From a virus (Duplodnaviria > Caudoviricetes): a stretch of DNA of 43,447 bases. Below the pieces are notes generated by a model. The model searched no databases. It was given only the letters and a program-made list of their open reading frames with translations, and was not told where the DNA came from. Within the stretch, counting starts at the first letter, position 1, and each line of letters starts with the position of its first letter. This document shows, in pieces, positions 1-25,299 of this stretch. The translations under genes were made by a program, and so were the position numbers. The DNA lies in IMG/VR virus record IMGVR_UViG_3300044708_000152, positions 1 to 43,447 of that record, one strand, 5' to 3'.

Positions 1-70
1 GCCCACCCCTCGGGCGGGGGGTCACCCTATAAACCCCGTGGTGGTACCCCTGGGGGCGGTCGTGGACGGT

Positions 71-84
71 AGAACAAACGTTCG
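71..84. promoter_or_regulatory. Gram-positive-type LexA/DinR SOS box (AGAAC-AAAC-GTTCG)
   Basis: Matches the GAAC-N4-GTTC consensus; intergenic, between terS (if circular) and the early promoter. Confidence 0.6.
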
Positions 85-127
85 GCCCTGGGGACCGCGG
101 AGCTCTTAACGGCGTCTAATCAAACGA

Positions 128-140
128 TAACATTTTGTTA
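128..140. promoter_or_regulatory. Palindromic operator O1 (TAACA-TTT-TGTTA)
   Basis: Perfect 5-3-5 inverted repeat; related copies at 164-176 and 3289-3301. Confidence 0.6.
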
Positions 141-151
141 GCACCAGGCCC

Positions 152-180
152 TTGCACCTTACGTATCAATTTGTTATATT
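152..180 (+). promoter_or_regulatory. Sigma70-type early promoter P1, containing operator O2 (164-176)
   Basis: -35 TTGCAC 152-157, 17-bp spacer, extended TG at 172-173, -10 TATATT 175-180; AT-rich island in a GC-rich genome. Confidence 0.8.
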
Positions 181-264
181 GTAGTTGTCGGGAGCGAGAG
201 ACCTCCCACACAGAACCAAACGGATCGCCCGCACGGCGATCAACACGAAAGAGAGTCACCAAAA

Positions 265-702
265 ATGAGAGCAGCACAGGCCGCACGCGCACAGCGCGAC
301 GCTCAGACCCGCATCGTGGATATCGTCAACGCGGGCGAGCAATTCCATAGCGCCTATGACCACATCTCGCGCCAGGCATTCGCGGCAATTCCGCCAACGC
401 TGCCGGGTTACGCCCGGGAATATCTCCGCGGTTATCTCAACGCGCGGCTCGATTTACTCTGGCGCAACACGGAATTCCGATATCAGCTCGCGGACGGTTC
501 ATGGGTCAACGCAACGGACCTTGAATACAACGGCACAGACCAAAGCTCCGGGCACTGGGTAGCAACGCACAATCCACCGGCTGCGCATTTCTGGAAAGGT
601 ACCGACCGTCCGTTCACTCACCCACAACCTATCAACAATACAACGCTCACACCAACGCCCGACTGCCTTACTCAGACTGTCGCCGACGCTTGGACCCACT
701 AG
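265..702 (+). CDS. Early hypothetical protein
   Basis: 145-aa ORF preceded by the conserved GAGAGTCACCAA motif (251-262). Confidence 0.75.
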   Translation: MRAAQAARAQRDAQTRIVDIVNAGEQFHSAYDHISRQAFAAIPPTLPGYAREYLRGYLNARLDLLWRNTEFRYQLADGSWVNATDLEYNGTDQSSGHWVATHNPPAAHFWKGTDRPFTHPQPINNTTLTPTPDCLTQTVADAWTH

Positions 703-722
703 AGACCACAGAGGAGTCACCA

Positions 723-992
723 ATGATCACCAAGCAGCAAGCCGTCATGGCTGACGAATTCCACTACACCGGAAATCACGAATGCTCGCGCACCGTAGGC
801 CCGCGCGGGGGAGTCACGGAAAAGATAGTGCGCGTGCGTCGCAACGGCGCAACGCAAACCTGGAAAACGCGCCCGGACGAATGGCGCCTCCCGGTCAAGT
901 ATGGAATGCGCGCACGCGACCAATTCTCAATCCACCATTACGAAGCGGCTAACTGGCATACCGCTAACGACTGCCCACTACAGACCACATAA
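723..992 (+). CDS. Early hypothetical protein (89 aa)
   Basis: ATG at 723 after GAGGAGTCACCA; stop immediately before hammerhead 1. Confidence 0.85.
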   Translation: MITKQQAVMADEFHYTGNHECSRTVGPRGGVTEKIVRVRRNGATQTWKTRPDEWRLPVKYGMRARDQFSIHHYEAANWHTANDCPLQTT

Positions 993-994
993 CA

Positions 995-1044
995 GGTCGA
1001 AACGTCGCGAGACGTCTAGGCGTTAGGCGCCTGCTGAAGAGACC
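995..1044 (+). ncRNA. Type II hammerhead ribozyme HH1 (predicted cleavage after C1016)
   Basis: GGUC-GAAA-CGUC(GCGA)GACG-UC-UAGGCG(UUAGG)CGCCUG-CUGAAGA-GACC: all three stems and the canonical CUGANGA/GAAA/GUC core are present. Confidence 0.92.
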
Positions 1045-1064
1045 AATTTAGGAGAGTCACAACG

Positions 1065-1388
1065 ATGCACACAGTTATTCGCGCGGACCTGCGCGCCAAT
1101 TGGGACAACGGCGACGCGTGGGGCTCCACAATGGGCGCCTGGTTTTCCATCGCCGACGTCCTTTACGTCACCGGCGAGGATATCCCCAACGACTGGGGAT
1201 ACCGCCAGCCCAACACGACAACGCGCGTACTGGCCAATATGTACGACGAAAACAACGGCGACTGGTTAGCCGCCGACCTGCGAGAGTCTTACTACACAAA
1301 CCTGGTTACCGCCGACGACTTGCGCCATGCTGGCAACGTCCTAAAGCGCCTCTCAGACATTCTCGAGGCCAACGACCGGAGCTACTGA
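1065..1388 (+). CDS. Early hypothetical protein (107 aa, acidic/aromatic)
   Basis: ATG after GGAGAGTCAC, downstream of HH1. Confidence 0.85.
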   Translation: MHTVIRADLRANWDNGDAWGSTMGAWFSIADVLYVTGEDIPNDWGYRQPNTTTRVLANMYDENNGDWLAADLRESYYTNLVTADDLRHAGNVLKRLSDILEANDRSY

Positions 1389-1389
1389 C

Positions 1390-1602
1390 ATGATCACCCT
1401 CGAATCCGGCGCGTTCGGATGGGACTACCTGCTAGTCAACGACAACGGCGAGTCCATCCTGATTCAGACCGACTATGACTACCCCGGCGTGGCGACAACG
1501 TTCGGCTGGGGCGGCTCCGAAGACGACATATCAGGAGCTGCTGCGTACCTTGACGACAACGTAGGCGCGAGCGTCGAAGACCCCGGCTACTTCAACGACT
1601 GA
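1390..1602 (+). CDS. Highly acidic 70-aa protein (DNA-mimic/anti-defence candidate)
   Basis: 14 D/E and no K/R/H; starts 1 nt after the upstream stop; stop adjacent to HH2. Confidence 0.8.
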   Translation: MITLESGAFGWDYLLVNDNGESILIQTDYDYPGVATTFGWGGSEDDISGAAAYLDDNVGASVEDPGYFND

Positions 1603-1604
1603 CA

Positions 1605-1654
1605 GGTCGAAACGTCGCGAGACGTCCAGGCGTAAGGCGCCTGCTGAAGAGACC
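1605..1654 (+). ncRNA. Type II hammerhead ribozyme HH2 (predicted cleavage after C1626)
   Basis: Same fold as HH1; stem I CAGGCG/CGCCUG; canonical CUGAAGA core. Confidence 0.92.
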
Positions 1655-1674
1655 ATTTGAGGAGAGTCACAACG

Positions 1675-2241
1675 ATGGAACCTGTTGAAACCACCGAACG
1701 CTACGGATATACCGCTCGCATCGAATATGACAACGATCCGGAGTCCCCGCGCGAATGGGACAACCTTGGCACCATCATCACATGGCACCGCCGCTACGCC
1801 TTCGGCGACCGCGACGGATACCGTGAAGGGATCGACCCTGGAGAACTCTACAACGAGCTGAAAAGCGAAGGCGCTCTCATTCTGCCGATCTACATGTACG
1901 AACATAGCGGGATCACCATCCGAACGTCAGACTTCGCTGATCCTTGGGATTCCGGCCAGGTCGGGTTTATCTATGTCGACCGTGCCAAGATCTTGGAGGA
2001 ATACAACGCCAAACGTGTAACAACATCCGTTCGCGAACGCGCGTTGGCGTGCTTGAAGGCCGAAGTGGAAGTACTGGACCAGTTTCTTACCGGCGACATC
2101 TACGGCTACATCATCGAAGACGCGGGGGGTGACCACATCGACTCATGCTGGGGCTACTACGGACTTACAACGGTCCGCGAAGAGTTAAACGCAGCGCTTG
2201 AAGCCCTGCCGCATACGCTCCCTTTGCCGGAACTTGCGTAA
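1675..2241 (+). CDS. Conserved-looking phage/MGE hypothetical protein (SPREWDNLG...WDSGQVG...DSCWGYYG), acidic
   Basis: ATG at 1675 after GGAGAGTCAC; motif pattern recalled from phage early proteins of unknown function. Confidence 0.85.
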   Translation: MEPVETTERYGYTARIEYDNDPESPREWDNLGTIITWHRRYAFGDRDGYREGIDPGELYNELKSEGALILPIYMYEHSGITIRTSDFADPWDSGQVGFIYVDRAKILEEYNAKRVTTSVRERALACLKAEVEVLDQFLTGDIYGYIIEDAGGDHIDSCWGYYGLTTVREELNAALEALPHTLPLPELA

Positions 2242-2244
2242 TCA

Positions 2245-2294
2245 GGTCGAAACGTCGCGAGACGTCCAGGCGTGATGCGCCTGCCGATAAGACC
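2245..2294 (+). ncRNA. Type II hammerhead HH3, variant core CCGAUAA (U4C, G8A; probably impaired)
   Basis: All stems intact; two core substitutions, including loss of the C3-G8 pair. Confidence 0.8.
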
Positions 2295-2318
2295 ACTTTT
2301 GGAGAGTCACAACCGATC

Positions 2319-2600
2319 ATGGAAACTATCCACCTTACACTAATGATCGATCCATCCGACGCCGGGGAATTCGACCCGTATCATCCAGCGCTCAGCCCCG
2401 CACAACGCGCGGCGCTCGTCCGCGCACGATTGTTCGCAATTCTCGAAGAGGAAAACGACGTCGAATTGGCAACACGCCTGACCATAGAGCACAACGGCCT
2501 GGCTGCACTTGCGCGCAACGCCGTACGCGAGTATCGCAACGATTACCACTCGCCCGCCTTGGAGGAGGCTATCGAGCGGCTCGCATCAGCGCTTGACTGA
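2319..2600 (+). CDS. Early hypothetical protein (93 aa)
   Basis: Lies between HH3 and HH4; GGAGAGTCAC RBS. Confidence 0.85.
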   Translation: METIHLTLMIDPSDAGEFDPYHPALSPAQRAALVRARLFAILEEENDVELATRLTIEHNGLAALARNAVREYRNDYHSPALEEAIERLASALD

Positions 2601-2602
2601 CA

Positions 2603-2652
2603 GGTCGAAACGTCGCGAGGCGTCCAGGCGTGATGCGCCTGCCGATGAGACC
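2603..2652 (+). ncRNA. Type II hammerhead HH4, core CCGAUGA (U4C variant; predicted cleavage after C2624)
   Basis: Stems intact; a U-G wobble replaces U-A in stem III. Confidence 0.85.
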
Positions 2653-2670
2653 AATTCTGGAGAGTCACCT

Positions 2671-3006
2671 ATGAAAACACTCGCGGACCTCAACGCCAAC
2701 GCCCACGAGTACCGCACCTTCGGCAACGAGGGCAGCGGCACCGGGCCATTCACTCTACGGACCTCGTGGGCCGTGGGCTCGCAATCACGACGATGGAACC
2801 GCTCCGGTAAAACGCATCTGCTGCGTATCTCAACCGTGCTCGCAACGCACCCGGATGGCGGCTGGAAACCGAACTACTACAAGGTCGGCCAGGTCTACTC
2901 CGCCGCCGCCATGTGCGACTCCAACGGCCAGCACACCGGGCATGTGTACCCCAACGTCGACACGGACGCAGTGGACTGCCAGCGTTGCCTGAAGGCACTC
3001 CAGTGA
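2671..3006 (+). CDS. Early hypothetical protein (111 aa, C-terminal Cys motif)
   Basis: ATG at 2671 after GGAGAGTCACC; contains C...CQRC. Confidence 0.8.
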   Translation: MKTLADLNANAHEYRTFGNEGSGTGPFTLRTSWAVGSQSRRWNRSGKTHLLRISTVLATHPDGGWKPNYYKVGQVYSAAAMCDSNGQHTGHVYPNVDTDAVDCQRCLKALQ

Positions 3007-3273
3007 TCTACTACGCCGAGTGTTTCGCGAAACCGTACGGTGGTGGCTGGGCCGTCGCCGAGACTCCAGAAGAGGCGCTCAAAGCGGGCCCGTCGCAACG
3101 TCGGCGAGACCGCCCGCCACGAACGCGGATCGTACGTGCTCGAGTTCCCCGACAACGCCAACGTGAGTTGCGGGAGCGAGCTGTACGGTGGGTATCGTGC
3201 CAACGTCCACCCGCTGCGCATCGTCTCGAAGCACAAAATCACCATGGACGACAACGCACTGCTGGGCCGGTAA
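3003..3273 (+). pseudogene. Small gene apparently interrupted by a +1 frameshift near 3081-3083
   Basis: GTGA-coupled start MIYYAECFAKPYGGGWAVAETPEEALK continues naturally as RARRNVGETARHE...LLGR* in another frame if one A is removed. Confidence 0.55.
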
Positions 3274-3288
3274 TTCTGGCCCTCGCCC

Positions 3289-3305
3289 TATCATTTTGAT
3301 ATACT
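3289..3305 (+). promoter_or_regulatory. Second early promoter P2 (extended -10 TGaTATACT) overlapped by operator O3 (TATCA-TTT-TGATA)
   Basis: TG at 3297-3298, -10 TATACT 3300-3305; similar to the P1 core; no good -35. Confidence 0.7.
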
Positions 3306-3335
3306 GAACGCACAACGAAAACAGGAGAGTCACCA

Positions 3336-3740
3336 ATGTCTACCGCCAACGCTCGCGCCATTCTTGACAACGTCGAACTGCCCACCGCCCGCTATCGCGC
3401 CATTCGGACCCGCTACGTCGGGCCAACGAACACCCGCGGCTCGCGCATCATCGCCGACGCCGGGGACCGCGCCTCGCGCGTCGTCGTCAGTTACGACCCA
3501 GCGCTCAACACCGACCAGAACCACGCGTACGCCGCCGTGCTGGTCACCCGCAAAATGGGCTGGGACGATCCCCAGTATTTCACCCCATTGGTTGGCGGTG
3601 GATACAACGCCGAATACTTCTGGGTTTTCCAGAACCGCCCGGAACCCTGGATCGTATGCGCCGCGTGCGGCCATAGCGGGCCGCACACTTCCGATAGTGG
3701 GTGCTCACTCTGCGACTGCACAGAGAAAGTGCCGGCATGA
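3336..3740 (+). CDS. Phage hypothetical protein (YVGPTNTRGSRI motif) with C-terminal Zn ribbon
   Basis: GGAGAGTCACCA RBS; CAACGH...CSLCDC. Confidence 0.85.
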   Translation: MSTANARAILDNVELPTARYRAIRTRYVGPTNTRGSRIIADAGDRASRVVVSYDPALNTDQNHAYAAVLVTRKMGWDDPQYFTPLVGGGYNAEYFWVFQNRPEPWIVCAACGHSGPHTSDSGCSLCDCTEKVPA

Positions 3741-3955
3741 ACAGTGTAGAAGCGCTGGACTTCGCCCTCCAGATCCTCCGCAACCGGCAACGGCGCGTCG
3801 CGCCGGCCCCGGACGGCTCAAGCCCCACCGCGGACGCCATTGAAACCCTGAGCGCACTCCGCCAGCTCATCGAAGAAAACGAGCGCATACTCGACGCCGA
3901 AGAGAGCAACGACGACAACGCGCAACAGTCTTTCTGGAATGCGTACGTCCGATGA
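3737..3955 (+). CDS. Hypothetical protein (72 aa)
   Basis: ATGA overlaps at both ends. Confidence 0.75.
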   Translation: MNSVEALDFALQILRNRQRRVAPAPDGSSPTADAIETLSALRQLIEENERILDAEESNDDNAQQSFWNAYVR

Positions 3956-4164
3956 GCGGTTGCCCGTGCTGCGGCGCCAACGTCGCGCCGAATGTCCTTC
4001 ACATCAGCGGGCCCTGCTTCGGCCCGGTCCAACGCGCGGGCGACGGTGAACTGATCACCGTCTGCCACCGCCGAGCCAACCATGCGGGCGCGTGCTCCGA
4101 CTGGGCGCCCAACGAATGCACCGTCCCGGACTGTGCCTGCACTGAACAGGAACCCCTCCTATGA
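3952..4164 (+). CDS. Cys/His-rich small protein
   Basis: ATGA coupling; CPCC...C...CH...H...C...C...CAC. Confidence 0.65.
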   Translation: MSGCPCCGANVAPNVLHISGPCFGPVQRAGDGELITVCHRRANHAGACSDWAPNECTVPDCACTEQEPLL

Positions 4165-4319
4165 ACGTCTATGACATCCGCGAAGACACCGCCGGTCGCT
4201 GGTACGTGGTGCGCATCGACCTGGACACCGGCCAGGCCACGTACATCACCTGGTTTGACACACGGCTCCAGGCGCAACGCAACGCGGACCACCGCAACCT
4301 GGAGGCGAGCCGATCATGA
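4161..4319 (+). CDS. Hypothetical protein (52 aa, MNVYDIREDTAGRWYVV...)
   Basis: Not in the ORF track; fills the gap exactly with ATGA overlaps at both ends. Confidence 0.75.
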   Translation: MNVYDIREDTAGRWYVVRIDLDTGQATYITWFDTRLQAQRNADHRNLEASRS

Positions 4320-4582
4320 CTGAACAACGCATTGATGCCATCGAGCGCCGCCTTGCGGACCTCGAGCGCGTCGACCGTGAAACGATCCGCCTTCTTGACC
4401 GCCTCACCACCGCGATAGAGCTGCTGACCAACTCTCAGGTCAACCAGCAACGCATCCTCAACGAGCACACCGGTTTGCTGCGCGACCTGGTGCAGCTTGT
4501 TGGCAGCGTCGACGACCGCCTCGGCCGCATCGAGCAAATCTTGCTCGAGCGCGGCCACCAGAACGGAGCATCATCCACATGA
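4316..4582 (+). CDS. Coiled-coil protein
   Basis: Heptad-rich 88 aa; GGAGG RBS. Confidence 0.8.
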   Translation: MTEQRIDAIERRLADLERVDRETIRLLDRLTTAIELLTNSQVNQQRILNEHTGLLRDLVQLVGSVDDRLGRIEQILLERGHQNGASST

Positions 4583-4803
4583 GCAACGCAGCGACGCCGG
4601 CGCCCAACGCGGCGGCTGCCTCCTCTCTGCGCACACCTGAGGGTGTGCGCGCCTGGCGCAAGGAGCGCGGGCTCTCGCAGATCGACCTGGCGGAACTCCT
4701 CGAGGTGGTCCCCCTGACCGTACTGCGCTGGGAGAACGGCCAGGTCGCCATCCCGCGCACCGTCGAGCTCGCGCTGCTCTACCTCAGCGAGGCGCGGTCA
4801 TGA
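4579..4803 (+). CDS. XRE-family helix-turn-helix regulator
   Basis: VRAWRKERGLSQIDLAELLEVVPLTVLRWENG is a classic HTH_3 pattern. Confidence 0.9.
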   Translation: MSNAATPAPNAAAASSLRTPEGVRAWRKERGLSQIDLAELLEVVPLTVLRWENGQVAIPRTVELALLYLSEARS

Positions 4804-5054
4804 CAACGCTCGAAGAGTTAGCCGCACGCGTCGCACGCCTCGAGGAGCGTCAGGACCTCGCCACCAAAGCGGACCTGCTCGAGGTCCGTCGCGACATCGC
4901 CAACATGGCCACCGGCATTGGCACCGATCTTCGCGACATCCGCGGGCAGCTCGCAACGCAAGGTCAGAACATCGGCGAGATTCACCAGGACATCGCCGAA
5001 ATCCGCCGCATCCTTGTCCGCGGCATCTTTCGCTGGCCATGGGAGAAGCGCTAA
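4800..5054 (+). CDS. Coiled-coil protein (DUF1640-like LATKADL motif)
   Basis: DLATKADL, heptad repeats, hydrophobic/aromatic C-terminus. Confidence 0.75.
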   Translation: MTTLEELAARVARLEERQDLATKADLLEVRRDIANMATGIGTDLRDIRGQLATQGQNIGEIHQDIAEIRRILVRGIFRWPWEKR

Positions 5055-5148
5055 CGCCCCACCTCAACACAACACTGGATATCCGCCCGTGCGGGCGGGG
5101 TGTGTCACCACCCCGCCACGCTTACACGCCGATCACCGGAGGATCGAC

Positions 5149-5877
5149 ATGCACATCAAGACTACACTGGCCGCGCTCGCATTTGCGCTGGCCACCACTG
5201 CCAGCAGCACGCCTCAGGTGGCTGCCCAAAGCTACACCGCCACCACCACAACGGACCTGGCCACGGTCGCACCGTACCAGCACCTCAGCGACACGTCCAA
5301 CGCGGGCATGGACAGCATTCTGTTTATCTACCTGCGCCCGAACCTCGACAGATACTGGGGTCAAACCCTCGGCAACATGTACACCGCGCCCGGCTGGTCA
5401 TGGATCAATCGTAGCGGCGGCACCGCCACAGCATGCGGCAACATCACCCTCGAAAACGCGGCTAAGCAAGCCGCGTTCTACTGCCCACGCGACAAGGTGC
5501 TCTACTTCAACGCCGACTTTCTGCAGTACCAGGAGCGCCTGTTCGGCTTTCCTGGCATAGCTACCGTCATCGCCCACGAATACGGGCATCACATCCAGAA
5601 CCTCGAAGGCTGGGCGTCCGTCATGACAACTCAGCAGGAAGAGCTTCAAGCTGACCGCGACGCCGGGGCGTACCTGCGCTGGGCAGGCTGGACCTACACC
5701 ACCAACAACGGCGGCATAGCCAGTTGGTACACACTCAGCGACGTACAGGGCGTGGCCTGGGCCGCCGGCGATTACCTGTACTCCGATCCCGACCATCACG
5801 GCACGCCATCAGAGCGCTCTGAAGCGGTCACGCGCGGCTGGAACAACGGCCCCGGACTGAGCAGCGCCGCTATCTAG
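5149..5877 (+). CDS. Secreted neutral zinc metallopeptidase (YpfJ-like)
   Basis: Signal peptide; AFYCP, IAHEYGHHIQ, ELQAD and HGT motifs; GGAGG RBS. Confidence 0.88.
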   Translation: MHIKTTLAALAFALATTASSTPQVAAQSYTATTTTDLATVAPYQHLSDTSNAGMDSILFIYLRPNLDRYWGQTLGNMYTAPGWSWINRSGGTATACGNITLENAAKQAAFYCPRDKVLYFNADFLQYQERLFGFPGIATVIAHEYGHHIQNLEGWASVMTTQQEELQADRDAGAYLRWAGWTYTTNNGGIASWYTLSDVQGVAWAAGDYLYSDPDHHGTPSERSEAVTRGWNNGPGLSSAAI

Positions 5878-5885
5878 ACCCAAGG

Positions 5886-5956
5886 TATAGTTCTTCTGGG
5901 TTCACAGGCCCACCTGGTGAGGATGCAGTCGGCCCCGTGTCATGCGGGGTCGTTCT
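5886..5956 (+). ncRNA. Possible small RNA 1 (TATAGT -10 box followed by a short transcript ending in a hairpin)
   Basis: GGTATAGT at 5884-5891; hairpin CGGCCCCG/CGGGGTCG followed by TTCT; could simply be the peptidase terminator. Confidence 0.3.
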
Positions 5957-5978
5957 GCGCCTGGGGTATAGTCTGACT

Positions 5979-6053
5979 GGTACGCGGTGTCTTGGTGACT
6001 CTTCCACCGCGTGCGAGAAGGGGCCCCCGTTGTCGACAACGGGGGCCCTCTTG
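5979..6053 (+). ncRNA. Predicted trans-acting antisense sRNA against the early-gene RBS motif
   Basis: -10 TATAGT 5967-5972; 10-bp stem 5980-5989/6005-6014; loop UCUUGGUGACUCUUC complementary to GGAGAGUCACCAA; followed by a terminator. Confidence 0.75.
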
Positions 6054-6054
6054 C
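6015..6054. terminator. Bidirectional terminator between convergent operons
   Basis: Perfect 28-bp palindrome GGGCCCCCGTTGTCGACAACGGGGGCCC (6021-6048) with pyrimidine tails on both strands. Confidence 0.8.
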
Positions 6055-6055
6055 G

Positions 6056-6277
6056 TCAACGCCGACTCTTCTTGGGCTCTTTGCGCGGCACGATCTCCGG
6101 CGGGTGGTCGAAGCACATCTCCAGCCCGCGGTCGCAGGTGCCGCAGTATTGCCCCATCAAGATCCTCACCGGTAGGCCGCGCACGTGGTCACCGCACCGC
6201 GTGCAGGCGCCACACACCAGCTTGTCACCGGCGCGCAGCCCCCAGCGCACGTCCAGCTCGACCCTGCGCACGTTCAC
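6056..6277 (-). CDS. Zn-finger-like hypothetical protein
   Basis: GTGA overlap; CTRC...CGTC. Confidence 0.65.
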   Translation of the reverse strand: MNVRRVELDVRWGLRAGDKLVCGACTRCGDHVRGLPVRILMGQYCGTCDRGLEMCFDHPPEIVPRKEPKKSRR

Positions 6278-6489
6278 GCGAACACCACCACACGGCCGGC
6301 CCATAGCTGCCGCATCACCACGCTCCTGCGCAGCTGCGTCATCTCGCGCTGGTACAGCAGCTCCTCAACCTGGTCGAAGTGCTGATACTGGACGGCGCGT
6401 GCGATCCACGCGTCGTAGCGGATCATCTCGTTGCCGAGCTGGCGGATCTCCGCCAGCAGTTCCGCTTCAGCCTGGTTGTACGCCCTCAT
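6274..6489 (-). CDS. Hypothetical protein (71 aa)
   Basis: ATGA overlap with the primase stop. Confidence 0.7.
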   Translation of the reverse strand: MRAYNQAEAELLAEIRQLGNEMIRYDAWIARAVQYQHFDQVEELLYQREMTQLRRSVVMRQLWAGRVVVFA

Positions 6490-9317
6490 GACGTGCTCTC
6501 GAACGGCATCGTGCAGTCGAAGTGCAGGCCGAACCCTGCGCGCTCTTCCGCCTCGCTCAGGTGGATGCCGCAAGCGCGGCAAAGTTTGGCGCCAGGGTTG
6601 ATTGCCACGGTTTGTTGCCCTGGTTCTTCGGTCAAAATGGGCGTCAACAAACCCTCGTCAACAAACCCCACCGCAGCCACCACCTCCGCCTCTCGAGTCA
6701 GGGTTTCGAGATCAGAATCGGCCGCAACAGGCGAACTCTCCGGAGTATGAGATGCCACCCCCTCGATTTGGCAGCTAACCTCCTCGACCACCTCGCTGTC
6801 CGGTATGCCGCCAAATCCGCTTACCCCGGTCTCGCTCCACGGACGCCGGCGCGGGGCAAGGACCAGCACACCTGGTCGCCCGCCCTGCGGGCCGGCAGGC
6901 TTGCTGATGACGCAGCCCTTGTAGATTGACTCGTAGCGCTCGAGCACCGCCTTGAGCTGGTCACTGTTGCGGATACCGCCCACGTGCGCGTGCAAGATGT
7001 CCCTGCCATACGCCTGCCGCTCGTCGCGCTGCTCGAGCCAATCGACCACGCGATCAACGGAGCCGTCGAGACGTTCGTCTTTGAACGTGAGCGACAGGCG
7101 TTCCTGTTCCGGGAGTGCGCGCCAGCAGTCCAGAATTGCGTCCATGTACAGCGCGGCGCGCTCGACCATGCTCGCCTCGACCAGGCCGCCCTTGCCGGGG
7201 TTCTCGGCTTCGCAGAACACGCCGATGATGCGCAGTAGATGCACGTCCGCCTTCTGCAGCGCGGCCGAAACCGACGAGCCCTCCATGGCCTGGGCCCGCT
7301 GCTTCCAGCGCCGCTGATGCGCGCTGAAGGCGGCCAGCGCGCCAGCGTCCAGGCGCCAGCCACGATGCAGCGCGCGCTTGCTTAGCAGGTCGAGCAGCAG
7401 CGTGTCCCACACGCCGGGCGTGAACAGCCCGCCGTCGGGCAACTGCAGCGAGCGCAGGTCAGACAGGTGCGGCAACCAGCGCGGTCGAAGCCCATCCTCT
7501 TCCCCGCCCAGGCGTCCGTGCAGGCCAGTCTGCAGGCCGCCGCACACCACCATCGTGGGCTTCTCGATCAGGATGTCGACGTCGTTGCCGCCCTTGCTGC
7601 CAGTGCCGACGCGCTCGTACTGCCATTGCTCGCCTGTCCACAGTTCCAGAAAGCGCGCGCGGTCGGCGCTACTGGTTCCACGCTGGTACTCGCCGAAGGT
7701 GAGCAGCAGCTTGGACAGTTCGTCGGCGTCCCAGATGATCGAACCGCTGCCATACTGCAGCCGCCGCGCAATCGCCGACATGGTCGAGTCACTGAGGCGC
7801 AGGCGCTTGTCCCTGGGCGCTTCACTGTTGGCGCGGTCGGGCGCCTTCTGTGCGCGCCAGGCGCTCATCGCATCCTGGTACTCGCGGTACGCCTTGACGT
7901 CGTAGTCGCGCAGAGGCTTGAAGGCCATACTCTGCACAGGCGACTTCCCCGCACCACGAGGCGCCAGCAACACCACCCACAGGACCATGCGATCCGTCCA
8001 GGGGCCCTCGATCTCCACCATGCCGCCAGCCGCGCCGGCTACCGCGGCCACCGCAGCGCCGCACGCCAGGTTCGCCGGCAGCCCCATGCGCTGGGCCAGA
8101 CGCACAAAGGCCTGCATCGGCTCGGGCAGTACATCGATGGGAAACCTGGGGATGCCGGCCAGGTGATAGTCGTCGGGACTCTCCGCGGCGTACTCCGTAT
8201 GCGCTCGAGCGACGAACACCGTGTTCAGGTAGTCGCCCAGCTCAGGCCAGTTCTTGACGATGGTCGGCAGCCCCTGCGCCGGCTGGCCGGCGGCGATCTT
8301 CTGCGTCGAGTCGTGCGCCAGGCGCTCGATCTCTGCCTCCCAGTGGCGCGTGCGGTCATCCAGAAAGCTGCGATCATTCGCCTGCTGAGCGGCTGCCTTG
8401 AGCAGCGCCGAGATGGATGACTCCTCCATCCCCTGGCGCGCCAGGAAGCCGCTCAGCGGCAGCAGGAAGTCGCTATGCCGGCTGATGATGGGCGTCCGCG
8501 GCCAGGACTCAGCGATGGCGGTCACCAGCGTGGCGTCGAAGATGGCGCTGCTGCGCAGCGTCGACCAGGGCACCGCCGACTCGGCGAAGACGTCCGTTGC
8601 GATCTGAGGAGCTGCTTGTCCGCTGCGAGCTCGAGCCCAGACCTCGACCAGGTACGGGTTCGCGTTCCAGTCGTCATCGGGCGCGGTCTCGAGCCCGCTC
8701 CGCGGATGCTCGGCCAGCGCCAGGATGGCCGGCATGTCCAGGCTCAGCGCTTCCTGGGTGCTCAGGCGGACCTTGTAATGCCCGCCGTGACTGTTGAAGC
8801 TATTCGTCAGCCGCCACAGGCGCAGCTTGTCGTAGACCGCGTGGTCGAAGGGGGTCGACCCCATCAGCTCGACGGCGGCGGCCTTCTCCCAGATGTGCAG
8901 GTTCTCATCCGGCTCAAAGCCACCGAACAAGGTGTGCGGGATCTCAACATGAAATCCCTTGGCTCCACTGAAGTAGACCCGCAGCGCTTCCAGCGGCACG
9001 TCGGCAAGCGCCAGGCGCGCCATGAAATCCCTGACCCACTCCAGCGCAACCGCGGGGTTGTCGCGGTTGTCGAAGTCGAAGCGCAGGCTGGCATCCCAGA
9101 CCTTGCCAGCGAAGCCTTCGACCGTCCCGTTCCCGCTACTGTTGACGTGGGTGCGCGGCCACTCCACCAGCGCATCATCGCCGCGCGCGTGGCTGATATA
9201 GCGCTCCGCTCCGGTGTTGGAGAGCGCGACGACATCACGGATATGCCGCACCCGGTTGCGGCGGTTCAGCGCGCCCAGCGCTGTTTCGACGTACACAAAG
9301 CCCGCAGGTTCTGGCAT
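6486..9317 (-). CDS. Primase (AEP/prim-pol-like) fused to DUF3987/YfjI-like P-loop helicase
   Basis: N-terminal FDFD...YFSGAKGFH; FPIDVLP, APRGAGKSP, WDADE, GGLQ and DGLRPRW motifs. Confidence 0.85.
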   Translation of the reverse strand: MPEPAGFVYVETALGALNRRNRVRHIRDVVALSNTGAERYISHARGDDALVEWPRTHVNSSGNGTVEGFAGKVWDASLRFDFDNRDNPAVALEWVRDFMARLALADVPLEALRVYFSGAKGFHVEIPHTLFGGFEPDENLHIWEKAAAVELMGSTPFDHAVYDKLRLWRLTNSFNSHGGHYKVRLSTQEALSLDMPAILALAEHPRSGLETAPDDDWNANPYLVEVWARARSGQAAPQIATDVFAESAVPWSTLRSSAIFDATLVTAIAESWPRTPIISRHSDFLLPLSGFLARQGMEESSISALLKAAAQQANDRSFLDDRTRHWEAEIERLAHDSTQKIAAGQPAQGLPTIVKNWPELGDYLNTVFVARAHTEYAAESPDDYHLAGIPRFPIDVLPEPMQAFVRLAQRMGLPANLACGAAVAAVAGAAGGMVEIEGPWTDRMVLWVVLLAPRGAGKSPVQSMAFKPLRDYDVKAYREYQDAMSAWRAQKAPDRANSEAPRDKRLRLSDSTMSAIARRLQYGSGSIIWDADELSKLLLTFGEYQRGTSSADRARFLELWTGEQWQYERVGTGSKGGNDVDILIEKPTMVVCGGLQTGLHGRLGGEEDGLRPRWLPHLSDLRSLQLPDGGLFTPGVWDTLLLDLLSKRALHRGWRLDAGALAAFSAHQRRWKQRAQAMEGSSVSAALQKADVHLLRIIGVFCEAENPGKGGLVEASMVERAALYMDAILDCWRALPEQERLSLTFKDERLDGSVDRVVDWLEQRDERQAYGRDILHAHVGGIRNSDQLKAVLERYESIYKGCVISKPAGPQGGRPGVLVLAPRRRPWSETGVSGFGGIPDSEVVEEVSCQIEGVASHTPESSPVAADSDLETLTREAEVVAAVGFVDEGLLTPILTEEPGQQTVAINPGAKLCRACGIHLSEAEERAGFGLHFDCTMPFESTS

Positions 9318-23157: not shown

Positions 23158-25299
23158 TCAGATAGCCCTGGCGACAACCATCATGCCCGCGCCGCCATCC
23201 GCTACAAATGTGTACGCCTGACCGTGGGCAATGGAGATGGACGTGGGGCCTGATCCGTCTGGCATGCCAATCACTTGACCATTCGCTGCGGCAATAGTCA
23301 CAGCGGAGCCCGACCAGTTCTTGACGATCACCCACTCGCCGGCGCGACCACCCCCATTCGGCAAGTAGGTTGTGGAACCGGGAGCGTTGATGACGATGAA
23401 TGACGACCAGTGGTCAATCGTCCAGCCGTTGGTGGCGGTGGTGTAGTACAGCTTGAATGAGCCTACAGACAGCTTGCCACTCAACGTTGTGTCACCCGTG
23501 CCATTGATCGCTCCCACGCTCAACCAGGCAATTGGGTTCGCACCAGACGGCGCCGCGTAGAAGCTAATCGTGTCTGGGCCCGCGATGACACCCATCGCGC
23601 TGCTGCCGACATTGAAGCGGTTCCAGTTTGTGCCGTCGTAAAAGGCATTGCCCATCAAGTGCGCGCCGCTCTTACCCGAAACGAACAAGTAGCCATCGGT
23701 GCTCTCAAGGCTCAATCCGGCAGGGTTGTTGACTGGAGTGCGGATGCGCTCACTGCCGCCGCTGTTGATCCAGAGTGGGCCAGTGATGTACACGACGCCG
23801 TCGTCGCGTGTGTAGAACAGGTTGGTGGTGAGAGCAGAGTTGAGGTACTGGAAGCCGTAAGTGGTGCCGGCGGACCCAAGCGCCTTACTGGTCACCAGCA
23901 CTGTGGCGGTAGGTGGTGTGTTCACGCCGACGGTGCCTGCCACGCTCAAGTTGCGGCCCAGGAACAGGTCGCGCGGCCTGGTTGCGCCGCTCGCGCCGAT
24001 GTCCAAAGTGTTGTCGGTGACCGCCACGAAATGCCCGGCGGTTGTCACTTGCCAGCGGTCCACGTTGTTGGAAAACAGCGTCAGGGTGGTCGCGGAGTAT
24101 GTCCCGACACGTAGATTCCCTGCACCGCCGCCGATGTTGTATGAATCGATGGTGAGTGACGGCCCGACCAGCACCGACATCGCCACGTACACGCTGCGAG
24201 GTCGGCTCGCGCCACTCAGCCCGATGTCGTAGGTGGCGTCAGCAGTCGCGATGAAGTGACCCTGGTTATTGATTTGCCACTGCCAATTGCCCGCTGCACC
24301 AAGGTTCAGCGTGGCTGGGCCGACGATACTGGGCGTGACGATACCGTTCGTTCCGACGGTCAACTGATTGGCGATGAACGCGTTGCGTGGACGGTTCGCG
24401 CCGCTGGCGCCAATGTCATAGAGGTTGTCCGCAAACGCGGTCAGGTGTCCGGTGGTGCCGATATTCCAGCGGCTGGTGCCCGCCGTAGCCAGGTTCAGCC
24501 CCGACGTGCCACTCAAAGAGAAGGTCGAACTGCCCAGGAGCAGCGAGCCGTTGAGCGTGGCGATTTGCGCGCCGGTCCCGACAACAGCACTGGTAGCCAG
24601 ATACGCCGTGCGCGGGCGCGTAGCCCCGCTCAGGCCAATGTCGTAGGCGTTGTCGGAGACTGCGGTGAAGTTGCCCGCACTATCAATCGTCCAGCGGTTG
24701 CTTCCACCAGCACCTAACCGCAGCGGCTGCCCGGAACCTGCGCGGATCGTTAGGTCGTACGCCGCCGCAATCGTGTCAGGCAGCACGTTGAGTTCGCCAC
24801 TCCCGCCGATGCGGATATTGGAGTAGACGTAGACCTGGTACGGACGGAAGTCGCTCGTAGAGCCGATGTTCCAACTTGCATCGGGGCTGAAGGTCAGGTC
24901 TTGCGTCAAGGGCAACTGGATGCCGGCCCCGCTCGGCGTGCCCCAGGCGTAGTCATAGTCCGCGTTGGACGCCTTGATCAGGTACTGATTGGTGAGGCCA
25001 CCGGTGGGAATACCGGCGCCCATCGGCCCTGTTGGACCCATGGGACCAGGTACACCCTGGGGACCGGGCGAGCCATTGATGCCAGCTGGCCCTTGAGGCC
25101 CGGTCGCGCCTGTCGCGCCGGCGGGACCCATCGGACCAGCGATGCCTGGTTGCCCATCGATGCCGGCTGGGCCCATCGGCCCAATCGGACCCGCTGGCCC
25201 CGGCGGCCCCGGCGGGCCCTGTGCCCAGGTGGGTGGTAGCGGCTCCCCACCGACCGGGTTCCAGTTGACGCGCGGCTCAGTATTGACGACGTCGGTCAT
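23158..25299 (-). CDS. Tail fibre with collagen-like Gly-X-Y region and five DN.YDIG.SGA.RPR repeats
   Basis: About 22 GXY triplets near the N-terminus; internal repeats visible in the translation. Confidence 0.85.

Follow-up and report, generated by a model that had tools for sequence, protein, structure and literature searches.

A candidate phage small RNA with a loop complementary to a ribosome-binding tag shared by seven gene starts

A stem-loop beyond the end of a rightward phage operon presents a 15-nt loop complementary to a tag, GAGUCAC, which lies within the ribosome-binding site of seven rightward gene starts. The element that carries it, at positions 5967-6053 of the window (the whole stretch of DNA analysed, a complete virus record of 43,447 bp labelled G000), is a real feature; its function we infer. 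Judged by pairing and comparison of sequences, it is probably a trans-acting, multi-target anti-RBS small RNA that would occlude the tagged ribosome sites.

The genes of G000 include those for terminase, capsid, a tape-measure-like protein and a serine integrase. The rightward operon spans 265-5877 and holds small ORFs, mostly of unknown kind; from its gene layout it is likely to be an early operon. A leftward replication operon, ending at 6056, converges on it. The likely promoter of the rightward operon, located by eye on the + strand at 152-180 (TG-extended TATATT at 175-180, weak -35 box 17 nt upstream), is below the threshold of the consensus scan. Reading of the sequence gave a second extended -10-like site on the + strand (3297-3305) ahead of gene 3336, whose ATG begins a run of six overlapping ORFs reaching up to 5054. 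A small HTH gene is located within the operon at 4579-4803. The region 5149-5877, immediately upstream of the RNA element, encodes a putative secreted neutral zinc metallopeptidase (PF04228), and genome G006 retains a short remnant of its start. A terminase search of GTDB genomes gave 37 loci, all distant (best full-length matches 46% or less), and for this reason no prophage and no host were assigned. The closest cultured capsid proteins are 41% identical to that of G000, and a primase search of viral contigs gave no match. The one sequencing run examined yielded a 189-nt contig at 5748-5934, which does not cover the hairpin and has no bearing on expression.

The hairpin and its predicted targets

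The first-pass annotation had described a -10 box, a 10-bp stem, a 15-nt loop and a strong terminator. The hexamer TATAGT is present at 5967-5972 on the + strand, 7 nt upstream of the stem, and is one of only eight TATAGT-type hexamers on that strand of the 43 kb. As a promoter it is less certain: there is no -35 box, and a sigma-70 consensus scan of positions 1-7000 found no promoter, TATAGT 5967-5972 not being among its results. The predicted small RNA is ~75 nt long, with a predicted start about 5979. The stem and loop were borne out: the + strand arms at 5980-5989 (5′) and 6005-6014 (3′) form 10 bp, including one U-G pair, around the loop at 5990-6004, whose core is predicted to be 0.75 unpaired. 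The fold has a z-score of -4.24, with 0/200 shuffles folding equally well, and is more stable on the + strand (-17.8 kcal/mol) than on the - strand (-13.9 kcal/mol). A GC-rich, terminator-like hairpin of 13 bp, to which no strand was assigned, follows at 6020-6049 between the converging operons. In G000 it is succeeded by a CUUGCG-type sequence in place of a U-run, and a terminator scan of 1-7000 did not list it; the hairpin of the claimed terminator is thus present, and its strength rests on the U-tracts of relatives. Across three family members the -10-like hexamer is found at a conserved distance in 3/3, without a -35 box, the terminator hairpin in 3/3 and a U-tract in 2/3.

An Rfam covariance-model search of G000, in which C4 and phage antisense RNA families were included, gave 0 matches at the gathering threshold. 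Over 1-7000 there were two chance-level matches only (E up to 5), at other places than the element, and the hairpins of loci L465, L475, L522 and L539 had no match. Read-through RNA from the early operon of G000 is predicted to fold the same loop. In the adjoining region, 5878-5966, a structured stretch of 75 nt lies downstream of a further TATAGT (5886-5891) and stops just short of the small RNA's own -10-like site; as modelled, it could represent either a longer precursor or another small RNA.

On the + strand, GAGTCAC occurs eight times within 253-3333, with seven copies preceding an ATG, and twice in the other 40 kb; 200 mononucleotide shuffles averaged 0.19 copies per 3.4 kb and never exceeded 2. 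All seven sites belong to the rightward non-structural operon, lie 2-8 nt upstream of the ATG and hold a fixed place between the Shine-Dalgarno core and the ATG. The tag therefore has the features of SAS-type tags, namely an extended ribosome site in a single orientation near the ATG of non-structural genes. On the - strand the copy within the loop is, as had been claimed, not followed by a start codon.

The loop was said to pair over 10-13 nt with sites before seven named ATGs, and it does so at every one of them. The contiguous pairs, all with + strand sites, number 12 at 250-264 (ATG 265; -19.7 kcal/mol), 13 at 711-725 (ATG 723; -21.7), 10 at 1051-1065 (ATG 1065; -15.8), 10 at 1661-1675 (ATG 1675; -15.8), 10 at 2301-2315 (ATG 2319; -15.6), 11 at 2659-2673 (ATG 2671; -18.7) and 13 at 3324-3338 (ATG 3336; -21.0), with 8-11 Watson-Crick pairs at the seven sites. 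Combined with the predicted opening of the loop core, these 10-13 contiguous pairs at seven starts constitute a predicted exposed seed. When 122 other Shine-Dalgarno-bearing starts were paired with the loop, the mean was -9.0 kcal/mol (sd 2.7) and the best -16.7 kcal/mol; four targets (-18.7 to -21.7) are clear of this background, and three (-15.6 to -15.8) are not beyond the best untagged start. By mean duplex energy with the seven tagged starts, the loop ranks first of the 2,736 hairpin loops in the genome.

Seven of the 16 rightward ORFs in the 1-5.9 kb region are tagged. Because 8/9 of the untagged ORFs abut or overlap the preceding stop codon, the tagged starts appear to be the heads of translation units. 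The proposal that the whole early set is silenced consequently holds for the seven tagged unit heads, and for the other genes only by way of an inferred translational coupling.

Relatives with and without the hairpin

Two diverged relatives (terminase 73-74% identical) have the same arrangement where their early operon ends: after a -10-like hexamer comes a stem of other sequence that presents the same loop core, followed by a U-tract terminator. The first, G001, is 73% identical to G000 in terminase, 86% in capsid and 34% in integrase, shares 2/23 left-end proteins and, like G000, has a serine integrase. It has six tagged starts, and its element lies right after the integrase gene in the order extended -10-like site, 8-bp stem of other sequence, 15-nt loop and U-tract terminator on the target strand. 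Its loop is identical to that of G000 at 12/15 positions, forms 11 Watson-Crick pairs with 4/6 of its own targets and ranks first of 3,109 hairpin loops by mean duplex energy with its own tagged starts. The second, G024 (terminase 74%), was obtained from a tag scan (88 loci, 85 of them newly analysed); its tagged starts number three, and its element is laid out alike, the terminator having a U6 tract. In both relatives the hexamer is of the form TAnnnT with a preceding TG, at a distance similar to that in G000. A hammerhead-plus-tag scan gave 13 loci, two of which are relatives.

Two of the three targets of G024 read GAGUCACCAC and its loop reads GUGGUGACUC, the G000 counterparts being GAGUCACCAA and UUGGUGACUC. 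One position is compensatory: a loop G stands opposite a target C in G024, and a U opposite an A in G000. The covariation of loop and ribosome-site motif that had been proposed as a check was thus found at one position in one genome; none was seen between tag and loop core in tag-bearing genomes without the hairpin, and phage SirPhilip is a counter-example within the look-alike described below. In a three-way alignment of G000, G001 and G024 the conserved columns are the -10-like hexamer and the loop core, and the stems vary; 7/27 predicted pairs changed on both sides, a count that carries little weight since the stems align poorly. The predicted fold of G024 is ambiguous. A sense copy of its tag is located just upstream, overlapping the -10-like site (L522:9115-9215), and would sequester the loop in read-through RNA, where the modelled unpaired probability of the loop is 0.06 as against about 0.5. 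This sense copy might be an on/off switch for the antisense loop.

A further close relative, G002, is a fragment with six tags that ends short of the operon junction, so that the tag core is common to four related records (G000, G001, G002 and G024). By eye, a small element with long inverted ends (L012 reverse 3500-3720) splits a genome-end region in G002 that is contiguous in G000.

For a wider comparison, 79 terminase loci were taken, 23 further records were completed and 66 records were scanned for repeated leaders. The hairpin is found in 2/17 genomes that are at least 90% complete, G000 included, and the independent family members that have it number only three. Genomes G003 (7 tags), G011 (7) and G004 (6; 61% complete) repeat other tags, and neither a pattern search nor duplex ranking gave an antisense hairpin in them. 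All three have tyrosine integrases, and on this ground we rejected the rule that temperate phages have the RNA and lytic ones lack it. G006, whose serine integrase is 71% identical, has neither tag nor hairpin, its early region being cut by the contig end. G037 has nine GAGUCAC copies in the part fetched and no exact antisense copy in the record; the part tested had no protein match to G000. As tag-repeating genomes occur that lack an antisense hairpin, the tag does not need the RNA. Repeated leaders are common among phages with hammerhead cassettes.

These tag-only phages bear on the possibility that the tag is a protein-binding site, either a DNA operator oriented with transcription or an RNA site bound by a translational repressor, and that the reversed copy is the same site on the - strand, acting as operator or decoy. 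It would agree with this that the motif is one base off a pseudo-palindrome, that the operon contains a small HTH gene and that, for the SAS of cluster K mycobacteriophages, extracts of PMC3203893 allow an RNA or a protein partner. Yet the reversed copy sits in a hairpin loop in 3/3 family members although their stems differ, and the tags keep their fixed place from Shine-Dalgarno core to ATG. Moreover, on the - strand the copy would lie beyond the terminator hairpin and in the weaker fold, and the U-tracts are on the + strand. We consider a protein site quite improbable.

The loop pattern is rare as a true hairpin: 43/44 viral matches and 118/120 metagenome matches (56/64 parts of the metagenome collection covered) have a stem of less than 5 bp, and the exceptions (one and two, respectively) are copies of G001. 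A stricter hairpin-target scan is represented by the best 22 of 149 records, and G024 is not among the matches listed. Several candidate analogues were rejected. The reversed matches in L243/L244 and L248 are ribosome sites of leftward genes; the match in L265 is inside the end of a leftward ORF, past a terminator; and that in L271 is of 9 bp, adjoins an integrase and a tRNA and may be attachment-site sequence. At L271:4900-9100 about ten hammerhead cassettes are each followed by the same leader (nine tagged starts), and then come a tyrosine-integrase-like gene and a tRNA-Leu. In an unrelated phage (L253:7868-8035), a hairpin after a tRNA-Asp has a loop of 11 nt, the complement of a GAGGCTCA tag found at four gene starts, and is followed by a U-tract terminator; with 9-bp pairing it would be a weak analogue.

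It could also be supposed that the reversed copy has no function, being left over from an inverted cassette leader or matching by chance within the ordinary structure of a terminator region. In many phages tags have been duplicated along with their gene cassettes, the hairpin is missing from most relatives, and some reversed matches elsewhere (L243, L248) are ribosome sites of leftward genes. Against this, position, strand, hexamer spacing and loop placement are alike in three genomes whose stems and neighbours differ, and 161/164 of the other loop-pattern matches are without a stem of 5 bp or more. We accordingly give this explanation very little credence.

Three further observations concern the genomes without the hairpin. 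Gene-free leaders of ~400 nt, with a hammerhead at their end, separate the likely early promoter from the first gene in G003 (L065:7480-7950) and G011 (about 24700-25100), and may contain further structured RNAs. In the same two genomes the starts adjoining tyrosine-integrase matches (42855 in G003, 35149 in G011) are preceded by the leader that is repeated before the early genes. By eye, the early region of G006 (L149:370-1200) shows two short motifs with 4-5 repeats in one orientation, near gene ends and away from ribosome sites.

A look-alike hairpin in cluster K mycobacteriophages

Extracts of PMC3203893 report that in cluster K phages a 13-bp SAS occurs at the starts of 11-19 genes, and that four K1 phages have one reversed SAS away from gene starts; either an RNA or a protein is left there as the partner of SAS. 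In extracts of a 2024 paper (PMC11373665) the role of SAS is still called unknown. The right half of Adephagia (JF704105) has 15 SAS; a single further copy, at 58682-58694 in the interval from gene 92 to gene 93, is reversed. When the strand of the SAS genes is folded, this copy forms a 10-nt apical loop on top of a long hairpin, in a region at about 58650-58715 (L462:28650-28715; related loci L465-L476). The hairpin stretch is covered to 80% or more by 127/149 matching records. In an alignment of 11 records selected for their diversity, nine have the exact loop and 98.3% of the stem cells are paired, a value reached by 3/500 shuffles. Many of the stem changes are G-U compatible; only two pairs changed on both sides, which 145/500 shuffles reached.

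Larva and Thyatira have the same loop on a different 16-bp stem, at another place near the left end. In Kratiovirus phages this loop is found in another stem, downstream of a tRNA gene. Amohnition has the loop minus one base, and in SirPhilip 13 SAS copies and the stem are kept and the loop has diverged. A kept ribosome-site motif with a diverged loop is the pattern that the first-pass annotation had named as speaking against its reading, and it is seen here, within the cluster K look-alike. No such hairpin loop was found in the whole genome of TM4 or in the 12 of 61 kb of Pixie that were read, and in AnnaSerena a reversed copy is missing from the whole genome, which has 10 tags.

Some features of the region blur the comparison. 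A hypothetical ORF is annotated over the hairpin in 3/10 K records, and gene 5 of Larva is called across it, its counterpart in Thyatira beginning after the hairpin; the stop-codon count over the cluster K region took in the ends of upstream genes and is compatible with an overlapping ORF. The loop also has a generic anti-Shine-Dalgarno run, and given this run it may be less specific. The look-alike sits where, according to the literature extracts, late transcription reportedly begins. Its sequence suggests an independent look-alike that follows the same logic in unrelated phages. The structures differ in that the cluster K hairpin is within a longer structured region and is without an obvious terminator of its own.

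Hammerheads, known phage RNAs and the proposed mechanism

Hammerhead-like elements precede 4/7 of the targets, all on the + strand. Type II elements with the core CUGAAGA are located at 995-1044 (predicted cut after 1016; no Rfam match) and 1605-1654 (predicted cut after 1626). The third, at 2245-2294, has the core CCGAUAA, changed at two positions, and is likely impaired; the fourth, at 2603-2652, has CCGAUGA, changed at one. By the type II definition (a CUGANGA/GAAA/UH core in which only stem II is left open, I and III being closed) the first two are canonical and the others altered, self-cleavage being a prediction. Extracts of PMC3088659 describe type II hammerheads that flank prophage genes in clusters and whose cleavage was demonstrated, and propose that they cut long transcripts to gene size. 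As far as these extracts go, the likeness is close: the hammerheads of G000, too, have closed stems I and III and an open stem II, and each of the four sits immediately upstream of a gene; apart from the changed cores of two copies they differ in nothing essential. A hammerhead scan of the viral collection covered 11/64 of its parts. In the genomes above the features come apart: G003 has four hammerheads by pattern and repeated tags without an antisense copy, and in G024 the antisense hairpin is present and no hammerhead is convincing. The all-RNA processing-plus-silencing circuit that had been envisaged is not supported as a unit, since only four of seven targets follow a hammerhead, the two features are split between genomes, and type II hammerheads between prophage genes are already published (PMC3088659). 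We conclude that the hammerheads are a known feature, separable from the antisense hairpin, and that the two are not one obligatory circuit.

C4 of P1/P7 and CI of P4 are structured phage RNAs that pair in trans, via exposed loops, with short sites in their own mRNA. Each serves one operon (an antirepressor operon or the P4 leader), is processed by RNase P and has a multi-stem fold. The G000 element, in contrast, is a single stem-loop plus terminator without an Rfam match, and its one loop addresses seven separate gene starts, those of unrelated early ORFs. Extracts of PMC12197685 state that sar (P22) and OOP and aQ (lambda) repress phage genes by pairing, sar blocking translation initiation; the known phage antisense RNAs covered in those extracts each act on one gene or operon. 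There, each of the three is described against one target gene, whereas the G000 pairing is short, its targets are 2.6-5.7 kb away and they share a private tag. The closest likeness on the target side is to SAS in cluster K (PMC3203893, PMC11373665) and in cluster EF Microbacterium phages (PMC7302621), where, in the extracts available, the tag extends the Shine-Dalgarno core at many non-structural starts in one orientation. The SAS sequence differs from the G000 tag, the phages are unrelated, those extracts propose no antisense partner, and the SAS-type phages AnnaSerena and TM4 have no such hairpin. In the literature searched, which held few subscription journals, we found no description of a phage RNA that targets a tag common to many genes of the same phage, and none of a partner for SAS. 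What would be new is accordingly a multi-gene tag addressed by one loop, a variant of phage antisense control; hammerheads and repeated SAS-type tags are known.

Shut-off of early genes by one trans-acting small RNA, as first suggested, has gained comparative support from the layout in two relatives with replaced stems, one compensatory change, U-tracts on the target strand and the cluster K look-alike. Transcription would begin about 5979 and stop at the hairpin of 6020-6049, and the stem of the RNA would keep the loop open for pairing in trans. Pairing would start on GAGUCAC and extend over the GGAG Shine-Dalgarno core up to the AUG. 30S binding at the tagged starts would then be lost and the seven genes blocked as a set, with overlapping downstream ORFs silenced indirectly through translational coupling. 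Silencing could take place in the lysogen, both G000 and G001 encoding a serine integrase, or at a late stage of infection, the look-alike of cluster K lying at the reported start of late transcription.

The same pairing might serve another end, the main job of the RNA being immunity against superinfecting relatives, or decay or premature termination of the transcripts. One loop would indeed reach relatives, given the tag core in four related records, and the neighbouring genes (a secreted peptidase in G000, the integrase in G001) would fit expression in the lysogen; phage P4 CI RNA, for its part, acts by termination. However, the duplex spans the Shine-Dalgarno core to the AUG, the usual geometry of a translation block, and the loop details follow each genome's own targets. 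We regard immunity or transcript decay as the main role as unlikely, and retain a block of translation initiation as the preferred reading. Of the two parts the repeated tag is most likely the older, having begun as the leader of gene cassettes that were duplicated; the antisense hairpin would be an optional addition that makes use of it.

It is possible, if somewhat short of probable, that unrelated phages have repeatedly evolved such an RNA-addressed regulon, in which many early genes share a private RBS tag and one hairpin-loop RNA, with no repressor protein, reads it and turns the set off; the reversed cluster K SAS, noted in 2011 and unexplained, would then be such a hairpin in the late transcript. 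If true, one short loop reading a many-gene tag would be a compact, protein-free off-switch for a gene set, and the reversed copy would give SAS a function. The SAS question thereby becomes testable, since the hairpin is present in cultured phages of M. smegmatis, a non-pathogenic laboratory host for which RNA-seq data and genetics exist.
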